Shown piece by piece: positions 1 through 44,228 of a stretch of 44,228 bases of DNA. The translations under genes and the position numbers were made by a program. Location of the stretch: sequence record PV040721.1; one strand, given 5' to 3'. Source of the stretch: Escherichia phage BUCT825. How positions within the stretch are numbered: position 1 is the stretch's first letter; the number at the start of each line of letters is the position of its first letter. The notes beneath the pieces were generated by a model. That model did no database searches. It saw only the letters and a program-made list of their open reading frames with translations, and had not been told where the DNA came from.

Positions 1-127
1 ATATACGGTACGTTGTACTTTTTAGCCAGACGCGCTGCCACTTTGCATGTAATCACAGCCTCTACCTGAAACGTTGGGTTTTTCTTCCGCTTTGTTTCGA
101 AATGCGCAGCCCCACTAACGGCTAAAT
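1..127. repeat. Left copy of exact 127-bp terminal duplication (identical to 44102-44228)
   Basis: Base-by-base identity of 1-127 with 44102-44228 read directly. Confidence 0.95.
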
Positions 128-356
128 CTGTGCAAGGAGGGAACGCAAAAATAATATCCGGCGCAACCTCGAAGTCGAATTTATTATCAATCCACGCGTT
201 TATATAGTGGATGTTCTCGTGTTCAACTTTTGCACCCAATCGCGCGTAGTCGCCATGGTCAGCGCCGTCGTAGTTGAAACAATAGCAAGTATGGCCTGCT
301 TCCGCCCACGGCTGGGCCATAAGGCCCGAACCGTCAAACAATGACCAGACAATCAT
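1..356 (-). CDS. DNA (cytosine-5)-methyltransferase-like protein, N-terminal part (gene continues at 43774-44228 across the circular junction; ~227 aa total)
   Basis: Minus-strand ATG at 354-356 overlapping upstream stop (ATGA); manual translation MIVWSLFDGSG...FAFPPCTDLAVSGA...ENPV reads open through position 1 into 44228; motifs resemble C5-MTase I (FxGxG), IV (PC), VI (ENV). Confidence 0.6.
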   Translation of the reverse strand, partial: MIVWSLFDGSGLMAQPWAEAGHTCYCFNYDGADHGDYARLGAKVEHENIHYINAWIDNKFDFEVAPDIIFAFPPCTDLAVSGAAHFETKRKKNPTFQVEAVITCKVAARLAKKYNVPY

Positions 357-544
357 TTCAGCACCAGAACTAACTCTTTACGCCCGAACGCCGTAACGTT
401 GCCTGTTACGTCTTCGATAACCAGTTTACCGTTCGACTCGACGTATACCGTATCAACGGCAACAGGACGACGGGTCTTAACGTTAAAAATCATGTCGCCA
501 GGTACGATGTCACGTGCTGGTTTGCGGTCATATTCGTGTTTCAT
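353..544 (-). CDS. hypothetical small protein (63 aa)
   Basis: ORF in operon context, start/stop overlap with downstream gene. Confidence 0.5.
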   Translation of the reverse strand: MKHEYDRKPARDIVPGDMIFNVKTRRPVAVDTVYVESNGKLVIEDVTGNVTAFGRKELVLVLK

Positions 545-947: not shown

Positions 948-1075
948 TCCAGCACCCACAGATAAATTGCGATGAACATGATCAATATGGCAACCATCAT
1001 GCCGTATTGACCCTCGTGACAGTAGACACCGGCGGCAAATCCAGCCAGTACCGCGATAATCAGTTTACTTGGCAT
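944..1075 (-). CDS. putative 43-aa hydrophobic membrane peptide
   Basis: Manual translation MPSKLIIAVLAGFAAGVYCHEGQYGMMVAILIMFIAIYLWVLE; start overlaps the polymerase stop. Confidence 0.25.
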   Translation of the reverse strand: MPSKLIIAVLAGFAAGVYCHEGQYGMMVAILIMFIAIYLWVLE

Positions 1076-3245
1076 AACGCTTCATCTCCGCACCTTCTGC
1101 TACAAGAGGGAACCCCTCCGCCCATTCAGGTAATTCGCACATCAACCGCTCAAGCTCTGCGACATTGTATTCTGGTAAATCCGGTGTCTCGCAGATAATT
1201 TCATCGTGAACATGAAGCACAATCGGGTAGCCGTTTGCTTCGACGTTCAGCAGCGCATTAGCCAGCAAATCACGGCACAGCGCCTGTGTGCAGTTTTCCA
1301 CGAGTTTACCGGAATATGTGTACTGGAAGCCCCACTGACGGGTTAACTGATTTTCTCCCTGGTACTTTATGCGCACGTTAGTAGACACCTTCCCATCTTC
1401 GTCTGTCTCTTTCGATACGCTCAACCCTACGCCTGGGTAAGACATAACGCGGCCCGACGGCAACGTCATGCGCAGCCACCAACCGGCGACTTTGTTGCTG
1501 TTGTTGTCTGTCTCTACGTTGCGCGAAAACTTAACTCCCCGCGGCCCCGCGGTGAACTCTTTGCCCGGATTGCGGATAGCCGCCATAGCCGCATCTTCAA
1601 TATCACGCCAGAAAGCTACTGTTTCCGGGTGTGACTCACGCCACATACGCTTGATAGCGTCGCAGGTACGCCACACTTTCTTATCAAGAATATAAGATGG
1701 TCGGTCATCTTTTTCACCAGGACGTGGCGGTCGCTTGGCTTCCTGAATACGCGCCCACTCATATCCACGTGCGGTAGCAGCCCAGATGTGGTCGGGGAAA
1801 GTCCCGTCCATTGTTTTTGCCATATCAACAAGGTCAAGGCCGAGGTTTTTGGCGAACTGTACGAATGCACCGACACCACCCGCGTAGCCAAGTCCCAGTT
1901 CGCAGGCCTTACCAATCTGGCGTAAGTCTTTACGTTCTTTCTTAATGTAATCCGACTCCATGCCAAACATCTTGCCTGCGGTTACGCAGTAAATATCCAG
2001 CCCGGCACGGAACGTATCAAGCGCGGTTTCTTCGCCAGCCAGCCACGCCAAACCGCGGCCTTCAACGTTAGAGTAATCGGCGACGACAAACTTATGCCCG
2101 GCTTCAGGTATAATGCAGCTGCGCACCGTCGATGCCGTTAGTTTGGCTACATCGAAACGGCGGTGCGCACGGCCTTTAAGTAACGCAGAAATGCCTTTAT
2201 CCAGTTCGTCGTCGTGATAGTACCCGCGAGCCAGGTTCTGCGGCTGGAAGCCTTTACCCGCAAATCGTAACGTACGTTTAGCTCCACCATACTGGATGCA
2301 ACCGCGACGGCGGTCGTCAGACGAGCGGCCTAACAGCAGCGGGTTATATTTCGTTGACGCAGTGGATGCCGCCCCGAGGCGCATTTCGATAATCGTGCGG
2401 GCGTCGTCCGGTAAATCATCATCCGCCAACAGGTCATTTAGCGTCGACTTCTGCGCGTTGTGGATTCGGTGCGCTGGCGCAAGTTCACGCAGAATAGGAA
2501 GGAAGTCTTTACCAGTAAGCGAGCCGCCGTATTTACGTTGGGCTTCTTCCTGCAACTGCGCTTTGTGTTTCTCTACCGCTTCAATCGCGGCTTCCGCCAA
2601 CGCAACGTCGACCTTAAACCCGCGGTCGTTGATTAACTGGTCCAGTTCCAGTACACGGTCCTCAAACTCCGAGTTACCCCACCGCGGTAGCTTATGGAAC
2701 ACTTCACGCATCGCGGTGATGTCGCTAACTGCGTACTTGATGAACAGCGCCCACTCGTCAGGGTGCGTTTCGGCGGTATAGCGGCGAATTTTGTAGTTCT
2801 TCGGTGTCGGTTTAGAGAAACGCTGAATCAGCGCCTTACCGCGTTTGTCTTTTGCGTTGTCAGCAGATACGCCCAGCACTTCGCACAGCGCATCGAGCGA
2901 ACCCGGCAGCGCGTGACGAAACGCCCAAATCATCGTATCAATGGTGTTGCTTACCGGAATGTCAAAACCCCAGCAGTGTTTCATGACGAGCCTATCGAAC
3001 ATTGAGCCGTTGTGCCACACCATCTTAACGCGGCTGTTCGGCTTAACCAGGCGGCGTAACGCGCGATACAAATCGCCCGGCATATCGCTGCCGTCGGTGC
3101 AATCCCATACCTGTACAGGCTGGTCGTTAAAAGCATATGTACAGATTAGCACTTCGGTAGTTGGATGTTCGGCGTAAGCGTAGGAACCGACTTTCTTCAA
3201 ATCGGCTTCGGAGAATGTTTCAAAGTCTAAGAACAGGTAACTCAT
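1065..3245 (-). CDS. Family A DNA polymerase with N-terminal 3'-5' exonuclease domain (726 aa)
   Basis: Exo I motif LDFETFS; Pol motif A DYSNVEGR, motif B RQIGKACELGLGYAGG, motif C VLHVHDEI. Confidence 0.9.
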   Translation of the reverse strand: MSYLFLDFETFSEADLKKVGSYAYAEHPTTEVLICTYAFNDQPVQVWDCTDGSDMPGDLYRALRRLVKPNSRVKMVWHNGSMFDRLVMKHCWGFDIPVSNTIDTMIWAFRHALPGSLDALCEVLGVSADNAKDKRGKALIQRFSKPTPKNYKIRRYTAETHPDEWALFIKYAVSDITAMREVFHKLPRWGNSEFEDRVLELDQLINDRGFKVDVALAEAAIEAVEKHKAQLQEEAQRKYGGSLTGKDFLPILRELAPAHRIHNAQKSTLNDLLADDDLPDDARTIIEMRLGAASTASTKYNPLLLGRSSDDRRRGCIQYGGAKRTLRFAGKGFQPQNLARGYYHDDELDKGISALLKGRAHRRFDVAKLTASTVRSCIIPEAGHKFVVADYSNVEGRGLAWLAGEETALDTFRAGLDIYCVTAGKMFGMESDYIKKERKDLRQIGKACELGLGYAGGVGAFVQFAKNLGLDLVDMAKTMDGTFPDHIWAATARGYEWARIQEAKRPPRPGEKDDRPSYILDKKVWRTCDAIKRMWRESHPETVAFWRDIEDAAMAAIRNPGKEFTAGPRGVKFSRNVETDNNSNKVAGWWLRMTLPSGRVMSYPGVGLSVSKETDEDGKVSTNVRIKYQGENQLTRQWGFQYTYSGKLVENCTQALCRDLLANALLNVEANGYPIVLHVHDEIICETPDLPEYNVAELERLMCELPEWAEGFPLVAEGAEMKRYAK

Positions 3246-4019: not shown

Positions 4020-5261
4020 TTATTCTAAATCTTCTTCACTAACCTTATTCCACTCAGGACGTTTGTCGTCCGCTGTTGTGACGCATGGCGCCCCCGGCTT
4101 ACGTGTGATGAAGTCTTTCAGTTCTTCTTCTGGTATTACTTTAACCGCTTCGGTCGGCGTCAGGAGCACTTCTTTAGTCAGCTTGTCGCCGTAGAGTTCT
4201 GCTACTTTCTCTGCGTCTTTCCACGCACGATTACCTGGGCGACCTTCCACCAGCTTGTACCCTGGCACTTTCTTACCGGAATGCAACGCAGCAGCCATAG
4301 CTTTTTCGACCTTATCGATGTGCTGGCGCAACAACGGCAACTTCTCATATTCAGCTACGAGTTGCTCCGGCGTAAGTTCCAGCGCAAAGTCGTCCTCCAG
4401 TTCTTCGGCAAGTACAGAATTAACCGTCTTTGTACGCGCTGCGCACTGTTCAGAGAACCGACACCACTGACAACCGTCGACAGACGGCTTAAAGTCCGAC
4501 GCTTTCAGGTTCTTCTTGCCTCGGAAATACGCATCAAGGGCTAACAGTGCGCGTTTCTGTGCGAACTTAGCGAACAGTTCCAGACCTTCAACCGAGATGT
4601 CCCACTCCGACGCGCCCCCGGCGTACGGCTGGAAGATGACTAGGCGCACTACTGATATGTTATAACGTCTCTTGAGTCGGCGGTAAACACCGAGAGCGTA
4701 GAGCATAAGCTGCTTGTTTTCTTTCGCTTCGACATGATGCCGTCCTGTTTTCAGGTCGCCGATAATGAGCATATGCTCGTCAGTGTTCGCCAGTTCCTGA
4801 ACGGCAACAAGGTCAGCGGTTCCGAACGTCTCAACGCCTTCGTAACCCGGATGCAATACCTCAGTAAGATTTACCCGCATTTCCAGCTTGGCGTAAGTCG
4901 CTACGTCGATAATCGCTTTGCAGTAGTCGGTGTACTTGCGCACCTGCTCAATCATGTCAGCCGTAATCAGTACCGCGCCTTTCATCTGGCTAATTAGCGC
5001 CTTAATCTGGCCTTTACCCTCGTCCAGCACGTAAGCGCCGACTTCACGCTCCAACGGCAACGCAGTGCCGCGTATATAGGCGTTGAGATGGACCTCAGCT
5101 ATGGTGTGCATGGCGGTTCCTGATACAGCGGCTTTACCCGACGTGTTAGGGATATCTTTTTCACACGCCAGCGACGCAGCGCATGACAGCCACTTTTTAG
5201 CGCCTGACGGTGACAGTAAGGCGTGTACATCATTATTGCCGCCTCGTTCTTTTAGTTTCAT
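4020..5261 (-). CDS. PD-(D/E)XK / Cas4-like nuclease (DUF2800-like) with C-terminal Cys cluster; start may be 5282
   Basis: ORF 4020-5282; internal ATG at 5261 has a better SD (GGGAG); C-terminal CQWCRFSEQC motif; N-terminal LSPSGAKKWLSCAAS. Confidence 0.6.
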   Translation of the reverse strand: MKLKERGGNNDVHALLSPSGAKKWLSCAASLACEKDIPNTSGKAAVSGTAMHTIAEVHLNAYIRGTALPLEREVGAYVLDEGKGQIKALISQMKGAVLITADMIEQVRKYTDYCKAIIDVATYAKLEMRVNLTEVLHPGYEGVETFGTADLVAVQELANTDEHMLIIGDLKTGRHHVEAKENKQLMLYALGVYRRLKRRYNISVVRLVIFQPYAGGASEWDISVEGLELFAKFAQKRALLALDAYFRGKKNLKASDFKPSVDGCQWCRFSEQCAARTKTVNSVLAEELEDDFALELTPEQLVAEYEKLPLLRQHIDKVEKAMAAALHSGKKVPGYKLVEGRPGNRAWKDAEKVAELYGDKLTKEVLLTPTEAVKVIPEEELKDFITRKPGAPCVTTADDKRPEWNKVSEEDLE

Positions 5262-5412
5262 GCTCTTAAACTCCCACCCCATTTAACTTTACGCGTTTTG
5301 CGCTTGTAGGCGCACGTGTCACCGCTACGGTTGAATATAATCAGCCAAGTCGAGTTGCTTACTCGAAAAGGCTGGTGACATTTAATAAAGAGAAGTCGCG
5401 CTTTACGGTTCG

Positions 5413-5562
5413 TCATTCTGCAATCTCCACAATACGCGCATTAGTGAAACTGCGTGCGAAGCCGAATGTGTAGAAGATGTACTGGGCTTCGTCCAAACGT
5501 GCGTAGCGGCTGTGTTCCTGGTCTTTACCGTCTATTTCTACAATTATCGCGTACCTTGTCAT
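5413..5562 (-). CDS. putative 49-aa protein
   Basis: Manual translation MTRYAIIVEIDGKDQEHSRYARLDEAQYIFYTFGFARSFTNARIVEIAE; ATGA overlap with upstream ORF stop. Confidence 0.3.
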   Translation of the reverse strand: MTRYAIIVEIDGKDQEHSRYARLDEAQYIFYTFGFARSFTNARIVEIAE

Positions 5563-5831
5563 ACCCTGCTCTCCCACTGGTCGATTAAATGTCGCGTCTT
5601 ATGTTCGCAGTGCATAGCCCACCCATACATCGACTCAAAGACATAAAAGTCTGGCTTGGCGAATGTCGTGCGCTTAATCTGTGACACGTGACGGCCTATA
5701 TCTTTAGGCCGCGGTACTTTGCCTAAGTAAGCCATCTCTTCCATCTGGTGCGCTCCGGACGGCGCACGCAACAGCCATAGTGCCTCTGTGTTGTCCCGCC
5801 TGTCGACGGCGCGGTAGAGTTGGTAAATCAT
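5559..5831 (-). CDS. hypothetical protein (90 aa)
   Basis: ORF in tightly packed minus-strand operon. Confidence 0.5.
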   Translation of the reverse strand: MIYQLYRAVDRRDNTEALWLLRAPSGAHQMEEMAYLGKVPRPKDIGRHVSQIKRTTFAKPDFYVFESMYGWAMHCEHKTRHLIDQWESRV

Positions 5832-39239: not shown

Positions 39240-42194
39240 ATGTCAAGCGGATGCGGTGACGTTTTAAGCTTGGCGGATTTACAAACCGCCAAGAAACACC
39301 AGATTTTCGAAGCTGAGGTTATTACCGGTAAATCCGGCGGTGTTGCTACTGGTGCTGATATTGATTACGCGACCAACGCAGTTACAGGGCAGACACAGAA
39401 GACACTGCCGGCTGTGTTGCGTGACGCAGGTTTTAAACTGGCAGATTTTGATTTCACGTCAGGCGGTACACTATCCGCTAACGACCGAAACACCGCAGTT
39501 TTGTGGCCGTCGTCCTCTGGCGGTGACGGGGATTGGTACTATTGGTTGGGTGCTCTGCCAAAAATTATCCCAGCGTCATCTTCTCCGCAGTCCACCGGTG
39601 GCGTGGCAGATGGGGCGTGGCAACCCGTCGGGTCGGTCGTACTGAGGCAGCAAATATCTAATGTAAACGGTGCAACTCTGTACCCAGATTTACATATGGC
39701 GCGATGGAAGGACGAATACGACCTACGCGCATGGGGCGCCGTGGGCGACGGTGTAACTGATGATACTCAATCTATTTTTAATGTATTAGCAGCTTCTCCC
39801 AACAATTGGATTATAGACGGCAGGGGTTTGACTTATAAAGTTTCCCAATTACCGGACATTAGTAAATTTAAGAATGCTGCATTCGTTTACGAGCGCGTAG
39901 CCGGGCAACCGCTTACTTATGTAGCTGATGGCTTCTTTAACAGCTCACTAACTAAGGTGACGGATACCCCGTTCTACAACGCATGGACGCAGGATAAAAC
40001 TTTCGTCTACGACCATGTTATTTACGCCCCGTTTATGGCGGGCGAACGACATGGCGTTCAAAACTTACATGTAGCTTGGGTTCGCTCTGGTGACGACGGG
40101 CAGACTTGGTCAATGCCTGAGTGGTTGACTCCAATCCATGCCGACTATAATGCCAGTGTTTCTGCAGACAGAGTTAACTACCACTGCATGAGCATGGGTA
40201 CGTGCGGCAACCGATTATATGCAGTTATAGAAACCCGCTACTTGTCTAATATGCGGATGAAGAAGGCAGAACTTTGGTCACGCCCGATGCCGTATTTTAG
40301 ACACCCAACCGGCGGAATAACTATTAGTTCTGGCTCCACTACTGCTACCATTGTTATAGAAAATCATGGCCTAAAAGCAGGAGATGCGGTTAACTTCTCT
40401 AATACATCGGCAACTGGCGTATCGGGTAATATGACGGTTGCGTCTATAATTAACCGAAATACGTTCACTGTTACGCTCTCAAGCCCTGCGGGTTCCACCA
40501 TAAACAATGCGGGGGTTACCTGGAACTTCGCAACGCGATTCTGGGACAGCCCGTGGGAAATTACCGAATTGCCGGGGGTGGCATACTCCACTAACGCTGA
40601 TTTGTGTGTCACGGAGACACATAGTTTTGCGGTTATAGATGATACTAACTACACTATCGCTGTCGGCTACCACAACGGCGATGTGTCCCCTCGTCGTCTT
40701 GGCGTCTTGTATTTTAGTAACGTTTATGACAACCCAGGCGTATTCGTTCGTCGCACTGTCGCTCAGGCATACGCTGATAACGCTTCTGAACCGTGCGTGA
40801 AAAGTTATGGAGGTGTGCTCTACCTTACCACACGCGGCACATTACCTACTTCCCCTGGCTCTACACTGGCGATGAGCACCGATTCTGGGCAAAACTGGAG
40901 CTACTTGCGATTTCCGAACAATGTACATCACTCCAATCTTCCGTTCGCTAAAGTAGGTGACTATCTCTACATCTTTGGTACAGAACGTGCCTTTGGCGAG
41001 TGGGAAGGGGGTGCGCCGGACAGCCGCTATGAAGGTTCGTATCCACGGACCTTTATGTGCAAAGTTAATGTGTCGTCATGGCCTTCATCTTTAGATGATG
41101 TTCAGTGGTTTAATATTACCGACCAAATATACCAGGGCCATATCGTTAACTCTGCAGTCGGCGTCGGCTCTGTCTGTGTTAAAGATGGCTGGTTGTACTA
41201 TATCTTTGGAGGGGAAGACTTCTTCTCTCCCTGGAGCATAGGGGATAACAGTGCGAAGTTATGGTACAAACATGATGGGCACCCGGCTGACTTATATAGC
41301 TACCGGATAAAGATTGAAGACCACCCGTATGTGTCACGTGATTTCAAATACGGAGCAACTCCTAACCGTACACTACCTGTCGCAATGGGTGTAGATGGTG
41401 TCCGTCATGTAGAAGCACCTTTGACGTTTGACAATGATGTAAGCGTGTACTCCCTGCGTGTAACGGGGTTGGAATACGACGGCACACAACAGTCTGCCGT
41501 GCGTGCGCGGTTTGATGGTGATTACGGGCTGATTTCAAAAACAGTCCCGACTAAAACTCCATCTGCTCAACGACTGATTGTTAGTGGCGGTGATGGCGCA
41601 TCCAGTTCCGACGGTGCATTGCTGCAGCTGTACGGGTCGAACCATGCAACGCCTAACAGGGCTATTATGTATGCGTCAGGAGGCTTCTACTCATACGCCA
41701 ATTTCCTTCCTTACTTAGACTCGCAAGTGTCTTTAGGTTCGGCAAGTAATAGGTGGACTACGGTGTACGCGACCACCGGTACGATAAACACGTCTGACGG
41801 TACACTTAAGACGAACAAAGAGGAAATTGAGGAACAACTCCTTACCGCGTGGGAAGATATACATGTAATATCTTTTAAGTGGCTTGAAAGCCTAGCAACC
41901 AAAGGTGACACTGCAAGGATACACTTCGGTGTGATAGCCCAAGATGTGCGAGACATATTGGTCAAACATGGGCTTATGGAGAAAGATTCTACCGATTGTA
42001 AATATGCTTTCTTGTGCTACGACTCAATTGAAGCTGCGTATGATATTGATGAAGATGGACGGACTGTACAAGTATCCCCTCCCGGCGGCAGATGGGGGGT
42101 TAGGGCGGACCAGATGTTCTTCATAGAGATTGCGTATCAGCGTAAGAAGATGCGCGAGTTCGAGAAGAGGCTGGCAGCACTAGAAGATAAATAA
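39240..42194 (+). CDS. tailspike: endosialidase-like (sialidase Asp-boxes) with C-terminal intramolecular chaperone (peptidase S74-like) domain, 984 aa
   Basis: Asp-boxes SGDDGQTW and STDSGQNW; C-terminal NTSDGTLKTNKEEIEE auto-cleavage-type motif (Ser codon 41793-41795); SD AGAGGA. Confidence 0.75.
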   Translation: MSSGCGDVLSLADLQTAKKHQIFEAEVITGKSGGVATGADIDYATNAVTGQTQKTLPAVLRDAGFKLADFDFTSGGTLSANDRNTAVLWPSSSGGDGDWYYWLGALPKIIPASSSPQSTGGVADGAWQPVGSVVLRQQISNVNGATLYPDLHMARWKDEYDLRAWGAVGDGVTDDTQSIFNVLAASPNNWIIDGRGLTYKVSQLPDISKFKNAAFVYERVAGQPLTYVADGFFNSSLTKVTDTPFYNAWTQDKTFVYDHVIYAPFMAGERHGVQNLHVAWVRSGDDGQTWSMPEWLTPIHADYNASVSADRVNYHCMSMGTCGNRLYAVIETRYLSNMRMKKAELWSRPMPYFRHPTGGITISSGSTTATIVIENHGLKAGDAVNFSNTSATGVSGNMTVASIINRNTFTVTLSSPAGSTINNAGVTWNFATRFWDSPWEITELPGVAYSTNADLCVTETHSFAVIDDTNYTIAVGYHNGDVSPRRLGVLYFSNVYDNPGVFVRRTVAQAYADNASEPCVKSYGGVLYLTTRGTLPTSPGSTLAMSTDSGQNWSYLRFPNNVHHSNLPFAKVGDYLYIFGTERAFGEWEGGAPDSRYEGSYPRTFMCKVNVSSWPSSLDDVQWFNITDQIYQGHIVNSAVGVGSVCVKDGWLYYIFGGEDFFSPWSIGDNSAKLWYKHDGHPADLYSYRIKIEDHPYVSRDFKYGATPNRTLPVAMGVDGVRHVEAPLTFDNDVSVYSLRVTGLEYDGTQQSAVRARFDGDYGLISKTVPTKTPSAQRLIVSGGDGASSSDGALLQLYGSNHATPNRAIMYASGGFYSYANFLPYLDSQVSLGSASNRWTTVYATTGTINTSDGTLKTNKEEIEEQLLTAWEDIHVISFKWLESLATKGDTARIHFGVIAQDVRDILVKHGLMEKDSTDCKYAFLCYDSIEAAYDIDEDGRTVQVSPPGGRWGVRADQMFFIEIAYQRKKMREFEKRLAALEDK

Positions 42195-42222: not shown

Positions 42223-42360
42223 CTACTCTTCCGATAACTTCTCCAGTACAAACGCCAGTTGCGCATTAGCGGCGTCTCTCTGTTGCCGTAGTCGCAGAAC
42301 CTCCTCTTCGAGTTCCTTGATACGTTTTTGCAATGCCGGAATCGGGGCTATGATGTTCAT
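42220..42360 (-). CDS. putative 46-aa coiled-coil peptide downstream of SNF2 helicase
   Basis: Manual translation MNIIAPIPALQKRIKELEEEVLRLRQQRDAANAQLAFVLEKLSEE; ATGA overlap with SNF2 stop. Confidence 0.3.
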
Positions 42361-43781
42361 TTCTTACCTCGTCTCTTCATGTAATTAAGCAACTCTTCCT
42401 GTACCGACTTCTTCTCATCAGTGCGCGCGGCAACAACTTCGTCCAGTGTGTCTTTAGCAACGATGTGATACAGAAACACCGGGCGTTCGTGCCCCGCCTG
42501 TTTCTGGCGAACTGGACCTATACGCTCCACAACCTGCAAATAGTGCTCAAGGTTCCAGCCTTGCGAGATGAATGCCAGATGATGTCCGCCGTCCTGTAAA
42601 TTCAAACCATGCCCGGCTGACGCAGGATGCACGCATAAGATTTCGATTTCCCCACGGTTCCACGCTTCCATCTGCTTATTACCCTTAGCGCCTTTTGCAA
42701 ACGCATGAGCCTGCGGGAATCGCTTAAGGATTCGTTCCAGTTCATGCTTGAACTGATAGGCCACCAGTAACGGCGCCCCCTGTAACTCCTCGACAATGGA
42801 CTCCAGCGCATCCAGTTTCGTGTCGTGCACTTTCTCCCAGTCTTTCGTTGCTTCTCCGTCTGGCCCCGACACATATACGGCACCGGATGCAATCTGCAAA
42901 CACTTCGACGTCTTCGCCGCGGCGTTAGCCGCTTCAACCTCTCCGCTTTCCAGTTCCGCGAATAACTTTTCCTCCATATCTATGTATGCCTGACGCGCTT
43001 TCTTCGGCAGGTCGATTTCAACCGGTACGATAATAGGCGCTTCACAACCGAACCACTCGGCAGCGTCAATCGTTAGACTAATGTCCTTCATCTTCTGATG
43101 AATCTCATTGTCCGCGCCAGGGCGCGCGTGATATTCACGGGCCATCGCTGACTTACCTTTCTGTACCGAGTTAAACCAGCGGTCCGTGAACGCCGTGTAT
43201 GAAGAACCGAGGCGCTCGCCTGCGTCGATAAACCAGTTCTGCCCCCACAAGTCCTTGAGGCCGTTTGGCGACGGGGTGCCAGTAAGGTTGATGAAGCGCT
43301 TAACCTTACCGAACGCCACTTTACTAAGCGCCTTTGCCCGCTTGCTTCCGCCAGAACGGCTGCGGAATGATTTCAGCTTCGTGCTTTCATCGGCAACGAT
43401 AACCGTAAAAGGCCAGTCGTCTTTGCCGTAGTAGTCAATCAGCCACTCGATAACTTCGTAGTTGGTGCATACCACGTTAGCATCTGACTCCAGCGCAGCT
43501 ATGCGGCGCTTCTCTGGACCTGTCGCATCGACTACACTCAGGCAAGGAAAGTTCCATTTCTCTTGTTCTGCGGGCCATGTGCCGGATGCAACACGTAACG
43601 GGGCTAGGATTAACACGCGGTCCTCTTCCGTAAGCTGCCCGTTGCGGAACAAGCGGTTTAAAGTCCATAGGACGCTGCCCGTCTTCCCGGCACCCATGCT
43701 TGCCCATATGTTGCAGCGATGATGCCGCAGCATGAACGAGGTCATGAGCTTCTGGTACTCTCGACGGATAAATTTAGACAT
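42357..43781 (-). CDS. SNF2-family DEAD/DEAH-box helicase, 474 aa
   Basis: Walker A SMGAGKTG, motif II VADESTKLK, motif III LTGTPSPN. Confidence 0.85.
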   Translation of the reverse strand: MSKFIRREYQKLMTSFMLRHHRCNIWASMGAGKTGSVLWTLNRLFRNGQLTEEDRVLILAPLRVASGTWPAEQEKWNFPCLSVVDATGPEKRRIAALESDANVVCTNYEVIEWLIDYYGKDDWPFTVIVADESTKLKSFRSRSGGSKRAKALSKVAFGKVKRFINLTGTPSPNGLKDLWGQNWFIDAGERLGSSYTAFTDRWFNSVQKGKSAMAREYHARPGADNEIHQKMKDISLTIDAAEWFGCEAPIIVPVEIDLPKKARQAYIDMEEKLFAELESGEVEAANAAAKTSKCLQIASGAVYVSGPDGEATKDWEKVHDTKLDALESIVEELQGAPLLVAYQFKHELERILKRFPQAHAFAKGAKGNKQMEAWNRGEIEILCVHPASAGHGLNLQDGGHHLAFISQGWNLEHYLQVVERIGPVRQKQAGHERPVFLYHIVAKDTLDEVVAARTDEKKSVQEELLNYMKRRGKK

Positions 43782-44228
43782 GATTAGCCTCGTAAACTGC
43801 TTTTGCGAAACCCCTCGGAGTAAGGCTACGGATTGTTTTTGTCCGCACTGATTTACCGCCTAATTTATTGTGTTGGTCAGAGTAACCGTCAGCCACGGCG
43901 ACACATGATTTAACAGGCATCACAAAACCGTTACCCGCCCAAATACATGTCTTCTTAGGGTACGCGTCCCGTGGTTTTATGTATTCAGAGAACATTGGGT
44001 GCGTGTCGTTTTCCGGTAGATAACCGCCGTATTCGTAGGGATTGAACACATAGTCGGGCCTACGCCATAAAGACGAAAGAACGCTAACAGGGTTCTCAAT
44101 CATATACGGTACGTTGTACTTTTTAGCCAGACGCGCTGCCACTTTGCATGTAATCACAGCCTCTACCTGAAACGTTGGGTTTTTCTTCCGCTTTGTTTCG
44201 AAATGCGCAGCCCCACTAACGGCTAAAT
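43774..44228 (-). CDS. DNA (cytosine-5)-methyltransferase-like protein, C-terminal part (N-terminal part at 1-356 across circular junction)
   Basis: Track ORF 43774-44157 is open upstream to the window edge; frame continues into 128-356; contains ENPV and GNGFVMPV motifs. Confidence 0.6.
   Translation of the reverse strand, partial: LAVSGAAHFETKRKKNPTFQVEAVITCKVAARLAKKYNVPYMIENPVSVLSSLWRRPDYVFNPYEYGGYLPENDTHPMFSEYIKPRDAYPKKTCIWAGNGFVMPVKSCVAVADGYSDQHNKLGGKSVRTKTIRSLTPRGFAKAVYEANHV
44102..44228. repeat. Right copy of exact 127-bp terminal duplication
   Basis: Identical to 1-127; implies circularised/permuted assembly or direct terminal repeat. Confidence 0.95.

Follow-up and report, generated by a model that had tools for sequence, protein, structure and literature searches.

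A probable Dcm-like cytosine-5 methyltransferase gene, whole once a 127-base terminal duplicate is removed, in Escherichia phage BUCT825

Does the linear sequence record of Escherichia phage BUCT825 (PV040721.1) cut through a gene at its two ends, and if so, what might the product do for the phage? The original prediction, made on the whole 44,228-nucleotide stretch of DNA analysed here (the window), proposed a small C5-methyltransferase-like frame of ∼ 227 amino acids on the minus strand, starting at ATG 354-356, split by the linearisation point and ending at 43774.

The start was placed at ATG 356..354 on the minus strand, the first start codon past an in-frame stop at 380..378. From 356 the frame is uninterrupted down to position 1, and on the far side of the junction it ends in a TAA stop at 43776..43774. 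Positions 1..127 are identical to positions 44102..44228 (an exact 127-base prefix = suffix), a duplicate that the original prediction had missed. The parts of the locus are as follows:

1..356, minus strand: 5' part of the methyltransferase gene, with codons 1-118 in full and two bases of codon 119
43774..44101, minus strand: 3' part of the methyltransferase gene, from the last base of codon 119 to the TAA, including K168/K169 and the IRSLTPRGFAKAV helix
44102..44228, strand not applicable: duplicate of 1..127, exact prefix = suffix

Literal joining of position 1 to position 44228 gives a frameshift, 127 not being divisible by 3, and a protein that stops at 122 aa. Collapsing the duplicate instead yields complement(join(43774..44101, 1..356)), 684 nt that encode a 227-aa methyltransferase in frame, within a true genome unit of 44,101 bp. 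After removal of the overlap the gene is whole. The proposed frame holds on this condition, as does its division by the linearisation point (356..1 joins 44101..43774), and re-joining the genome ends recovers the 684-nt ORF once the duplicate is collapsed. The expectation that linear ORF calling would miss or truncate the gene was also correct: the linear ORF list holds only a 127-aa, GTG-started fragment at 43774..44157, and the 5' part is absent from it.

Comparison with phage JSSK01 bears on the origin of the duplicate. The collapsed junction aligned over 2,400 nt in one piece, at 91.4% identity; left uncollapsed, it fell into two overlapping alignments. The 127-mer is single-copy in JSSK01. 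The largest k-mer in common assemblers is 127. Because the collapsed junction is colinear with JSSK01 and the 127-mer occurs there once, the repeat is best explained as the overlap that an assembler leaves on a circular or permuted genome. On the same two grounds we rejected a physical terminal repeat. The duplicate should be trimmed before circular joining; otherwise the methyltransferase gene looks frameshifted.

Dozens of GenBank phages already have a near-identical gene annotated, which disposes of the possible novelty raised by the original prediction. JSSK01_44, a 'DNA cytosine methyltransferase' by annotation, has 97.8% identity to the BUCT825 protein, and 38 phage records contain a copy at 95-99% identity. 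Equivalents of JSSK01_44, at 96-98% identity, occur in about 50 records of Kagunavirus and related phages under the labels 'DNA cytosine methyltransferase' or 'Dcm'. JSSK01_44 and its equivalents have the same length, flanks and start/stop overlaps as the BUCT825 gene and show no substantive difference; relatives deposited as circular records carry the 684-nt gene intact. More widely, homologues were found in 1,518 of 50,697 phage records, the carriers including Drexlerviridae, Dhillonvirus, Klebsiella siphoviruses, rV5-like myoviruses and the P1-like phage D6. Searches of large protein databases returned 4,833 homologous clusters, a number far beyond chance, and, at a level of 50% identity, 1,965 representatives. 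We regard the gene as already known: an ordinary, annotated phage DNA cytosine-5 methyltransferase gene whose family has a published functional study.

A profile search of the joined protein, which had been suggested as a check, gave a divided answer. PHROG 757 ('DNA methyltransferase') was matched at E 1.7e-86 with 290 bits over residues 1-226, whereas Pfam PF00145 scored 16.4 bits, below its gathering threshold of 22 (E 0.0064, residues 3-101 only). When 117 family representatives with pairwise identity of at most 50% were scanned for members that might bridge to PF00145, three of them reached E<0.01, all weakly. No NCBIfam family was matched by the methyltransferase at E up to 1. PDB sequence searches with the single protein and with one family profile (A1) gave no match, and a second family profile (A2) gave chance-level matches only (dehydrogenases, E 0.019 or worse), none of them credible. 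The abundant PHROG 757 family is thus missed by Pfam and NCBIfam but detected by PHROGs and by fold comparison.

The AlphaFold2 model of the methyltransferase, built from a 21-sequence alignment, has a pLDDT of 83.7 and a pTM of 0.85. In a Foldseek search of the PDB, all of the best 50 matches listed are C5 DNA methyltransferases (the catalytic domains of DNMT3A/3B/3C, and M.HaeIII), from E 4.5e-7. The protein is predicted to adopt the catalytic-domain fold of C5 DNA methyltransferases, with its elements in the order typical of them: FDGSG comes after strand 2-6 and PPC after strand 68-71, ENP lies on strand 118-123, and WRR stands ahead of strand 136-138. Past strand 136-138 the model consists of loops, short helices, one strand (170-175) and C-terminal helices, and it contains no separate target-recognition domain as large as those of bacterial type II enzymes.

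All of the motifs named in the original prediction could be placed on the protein. FDGSG, which corresponds to FxGxG of motif I, occupies residues 7-11 (codons 338..324). The segment FAFPPCTDLAVSGA spans residues 70-83 and carries the PPC of motif IV (P73-P74-C75, codons 140..132), with the catalytic Cys75 encoded at 134..132. ENPV forms residues 121-124, the codons of E121-N-P lying at 44097..44089. W131-R132-R133 sits in the model where the arginines of motif VIII, (Q)xRxR, would be expected. No motif X of the form GN(A/S)V is recognisable in the BUCT825 methyltransferase; the C-terminal IRSLTPRGFAKAV could be an equivalent of motif IX or motif X.

The 117 representatives show which of these positions matter to the family. 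C75 is conserved in 94% (110/117), E121 in 97% (114/117), N122 in 93%, P123 in 98%, R132 in 88% and K168 in 93%, and K169 is mostly K or R. Judged from these alignments, the residues that the standard C5 mechanism would use (Cys75, Glu121, Arg132 and Lys168/169) are conserved family-wide. The median length of the family is 234 aa and T directly follows PC in 100 of the 117 representatives, so that shortness and the PC-T sequence are family traits and not anomalies. The position equivalent to the middle glycine of motif I (G9) is mostly Y, R, L, H or F among the representatives; the BUCT825 methyltransferase, unlike the wider family, keeps the canonical FxGxG. Position 28 is D in 90% of the representatives and N in the BUCT825 clade. 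The family and the canonical C5 methyltransferases may differ in their SAM pockets.

The distance from those canonical enzymes is large. The BUCT825 protein is 13-18% identical to DNMT3A/DNMT3B, M.HhaI, M.HaeIII and M.MpeI (PF00145), and compared with the bacterial C5 enzymes it is ∼ 100 residues shorter and has PC-T where they have PC-Q. Like E. coli Dcm and M.EcoRII it is labelled 'Dcm' in databases and is expected to have their chemistry, but it does not group with them by sequence, there being no NCBIfam model and no PDB sequence match for it.

The genomic setting of the gene is that of a well-sampled phage group. Over its first 8 kb the BUCT825 sequence is 90-96% identical at the nucleotide level to Kagunavirus genomes (Guernseyvirinae siphoviruses), the best match being JSSK01, from E. 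coli K1, and the genome is that of a circularly assembled Kagunavirus, a siphovirus. A 984-aa ORF at 39240..42194 (plus strand) contains all endosialidase domains (End_beta_propel 744 bits) and the S74 chaperone domain. As a K1 endosialidase tailspike it points to a K1-capsule-specific host range, and therefore to K1-encapsulated E. coli as the probable host. The genes around the methyltransferase are:

353..544, minus strand: 63-aa ORF, upstream of the methyltransferase; the TGA stop of the ORF and the ATG of the methyltransferase overlap as ATGA
42357..43781, minus strand: SNF2-family helicase, downstream (Pfam SNF2-rel_dom, 48.4 bits)
1065..3245, in the minus-strand replication operon: family-A DNA polymerase gene, further upstream of the methyltransferase

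No Pfam match was obtained for the 63-aa ORF. Its ATGA overlap with the methyltransferase gene suggests translational coupling. On the downstream side the final 8 bases of the methyltransferase gene are shared with the start of the helicase gene (ATG 43781..43779), which places both in one replication-gene operon. The flanking genes and the overlapping start and stop codons are arranged in JSSK01 as in BUCT825. Between its SNF2 helicase and a 45-aa ORF, JSSK01 also has a 516-nt gene for a TOPRIM 'DNA primase' (5098..5613), which is missing from both BUCT825 (42223..42360 / 42357..43781) and Bas73. No restriction endonuclease is present among the 80 annotated features of JSSK01, a 93%-identical relative, and this supports the view in the original prediction that the methyltransferase is an orphan.

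A different gene, for a C5 methyltransferase of 264 aa (the Bas73_0036 type), fills the same slot in Bas73 and, among the matches listed, in most of the closest relatives. This protein has the canonical motifs FAGIGG, PPCQPFS and GNAIVPQV and matches PF00145 with 59 bits. It too is short and an orphan, and in Kagunaviruses that are otherwise ∼ 90% identical its gene takes exactly the same place, flanked by the 63-aa ORF and the SNF2 helicase; the 63-aa ORF is retained beside both methyltransferase alleles. Nucleotide homology between BUCT825 and Bas73 extends through the helicase to 43763 and resumes at 353, so the breaks coincide with the borders of the methyltransferase ORF and the exchanged segment (BUCT825 43764..44101 + 1..352 vs Bas73 2200..3000) is a gene-sized cassette. 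Beyond the PC motif no profile similarity was detected between the two families: hhalign of the PHROG 757-type family against the Bas73 type gave a probability of 1.6% with that motif alone aligned, and so yielded no residue-by-residue map of motifs VIII-X. The Bas73-type profile in that comparison came from a 58-sequence alignment with relatives from viral contigs, and the Bas73 protein alone was also compared. Kagunaviruses thus swap unrelated C5 methyltransferase genes precisely at one slot. We infer that unrelated, interchangeable methyltransferases at a single locus fit selection for varied methylation specificity.

The BUCT825 genome contains five GATC sites (980, 7843, 11115, 16410 and 25004) against 137 +/- 12 expected from dinucleotide-preserving shuffles, with a Markov z of about -16. 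Several 6-mer palindromes, GC-rich ones among them, are absent or nearly so (GGTACC 0, GGGCCC 0, CGGCCG 0, AAGCTT 1, TGGCCA 1), and CCGG, GCGC, TCGA and CCWGG show no avoidance. The scarcity of GATC and of these palindromes is strong restriction-site or Dam-site avoidance.

How the enzyme would serve the phage can be outlined from the conserved residues and the gene order. Cys75 would attack C6 of a flipped-out cytosine, Glu121 would protonate N3, and the methyl group of SAM would be transferred to C5. Produced together with the replication proteins, the methyltransferase would methylate progeny DNA before packaging, and this DNA would be protected from restriction enzymes that have the same target site as the methyltransferase. 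The arrangement could carry a cost, as the enzyme might trip methylation-sensing defences such as retron Ec86. By conventional reasoning a putative anti-restriction role is plausible. In work on the BASEL collection, the presence of a C5 or N6 methyltransferase in Drexlerviridae showed no simple relation to restriction resistance (PMC8594841), and Kagunavirus isolates proved highly sensitive to restriction-modification (PMC11990801). These results are compatible with protection at the target of the enzyme itself, because the BASEL tests cover few recognition sites.

The same BASEL results would also suit an active C5 methyltransferase whose main benefit is something other than restriction protection, be it in replication, packaging, expression or the countering of a defence that is not restriction-modification. 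We consider this unlikely but worth serious thought. It would agree with the heavy reliance of the genome on site avoidance (GATC 5 vs 137, 6-mer palindromes missing) and with a gene that is embedded among replication genes and apparently coupled to them in translation. However, BASEL may have tested restriction systems with target sites other than that of the enzyme, and the exchange of unrelated C5 methyltransferases at one slot of ∼ 90%-identical phages is what diversifying selection on specificity would be expected to produce.

Experimental evidence on the chemistry comes from a relative. Phage K42 (Drexlerviridae) has a genome 95.4% identical to that of KarlJaspers (Bas06), and its mutants that escape retron Ec86 (Retron-Eco1) were all hit in a 711-bp dcm gene, the product of which is the trigger of this retron (bioRxiv 10.1101/2023.08.16.553469). 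Expression of K42 Dcm raised 5-methylcytosine on msDNA in vivo, as determined by LC-MS against a 5mC standard, and the C82A/E128A/K175A/K176A variant gave no rise in 5mC (bioRxiv 10.1101/2023.08.16.553469). In KarlJaspers (MZ501090) the corresponding gene is bas06_0055 (QXV82308.1, 711 bp), annotated 'Dcm-like C5 cytosine methyltransferase'. Its product and the BUCT825 protein align over the full length with 55% identity (E 1e-94), C82, E128, K175 and K176 matching C75, E121, K168 and K169 of the latter. The two proteins share the PPCTD, ENP and PKK motifs and a size class (236 vs 227 aa), and each is the product of an orphan gene in a lytic siphovirus. KarlJaspers, a Hanrivervirus, belongs to another phage family, however, and its gene has small early genes for neighbours, where that of BUCT825 has a 63-aa ORF and an SNF2 helicase. 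A further protein, P0062 (236 aa, with agreeing residue numbers), was considered as K42 Dcm and rejected; its nearest phages are Salmonella Sasha and Sergei, not KarlJaspers.

The 5mC activity and the triggering of the retron were measured for K42 Dcm only, and the BUCT825 enzyme is placed beside it by homology. C5 chemistry of the BUCT825 enzyme is supported, because a 55%-identical relative has been tested and its product is ordinary 5mC. In the original prediction the type of enzyme was rightly given as C5, a view to which the predicted fold, the catalytic motifs and the identity to an active phage enzyme now lend support. Its suggestion that shortness and the T after PC might signal an atypical chemistry did not survive: both are family-wide, and the tested member makes 5-methylcytosine. 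An active enzyme that does something other than plain 5-methylation of DNA, such as the transfer of another group (carboxymethyl from carboxy-SAM) or modification of RNA or tRNA in the manner of Dnmt2, is accordingly very unlikely. It would suit a family that is very remote in sequence from the canonical enzymes and has not kept the glycine-rich motif I throughout. Against it stand the LC-MS identification of 5mC on DNA for the K42 enzyme and the annotation of the close relative JSSK01, which lists no companion gene that would make a cofactor or modify the base further. We dismiss as a negligible prospect an artefactual origin of the split, whether through a pseudogene or a gene cut short where the genome truly ends, or through a genuine terminal repeat. 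The literal end-to-end join, out of frame with a stop at 122 aa, would point to such an origin, but it is opposed by a repeat of exactly 127 bases with prefix = suffix, by the colinearity of the collapsed junction with JSSK01 (2,400 nt) and the single copy of the 127-mer there, and by the intact 684-nt gene in the circular records of relatives. With considerable confidence we conclude that the locus encodes an orphan SAM-dependent DNA cytosine-5 methyltransferase, intact at 227 aa, of a compact phage 'Dcm-like' family (PHROG 757), borne by a Kagunavirus.

Which site the family reads is a separate matter. E. coli MG1655 carries its own Dcm. In the wild-type strain msDNA was poorly methylated until the phage enzyme was expressed (bioRxiv 10.1101/2023.08.16.553469), and because a dcm-plus host left msDNA in this state we read CCWGG as no more than a candidate specificity for the family. 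For K42 Dcm, CCWGG was assumed from E. coli Dcm and is supported indirectly by mutation of CCTGG in msDNA (bioRxiv 10.1101/2023.08.16.553469). In the literature on Kagunavirus, Guernseyvirinae and Drexlerviridae we found no measured methylome or recognition site for the PHROG 757 family. The BUCT825 genome has 86 CCWGG sites, against 63 +/- 7 by dinucleotide shuffles and 113 by a Markov model; counts that lie over the one expectation and slightly under the other are uninformative and give no pointer to specificity. We put forward tentatively, and at less than even confidence, that the compact PPCTD/ENP family, for which no separate target-recognition domain is predicted, may read a site other than CCWGG, probably a shorter or more relaxed one.

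For BUCT825 itself little is at stake, since its enzyme is a routine annotated phage methyltransferase. The PHROG 757 family as a whole is found in ∼ 1,500 sequenced phages and is able to trigger a retron defence. If the tentative reading of its specificity is true, the PPCTD/ENP family would be a widespread minimal C5 methyltransferase with another specificity, carried in ∼ 3% of sequenced phage records.
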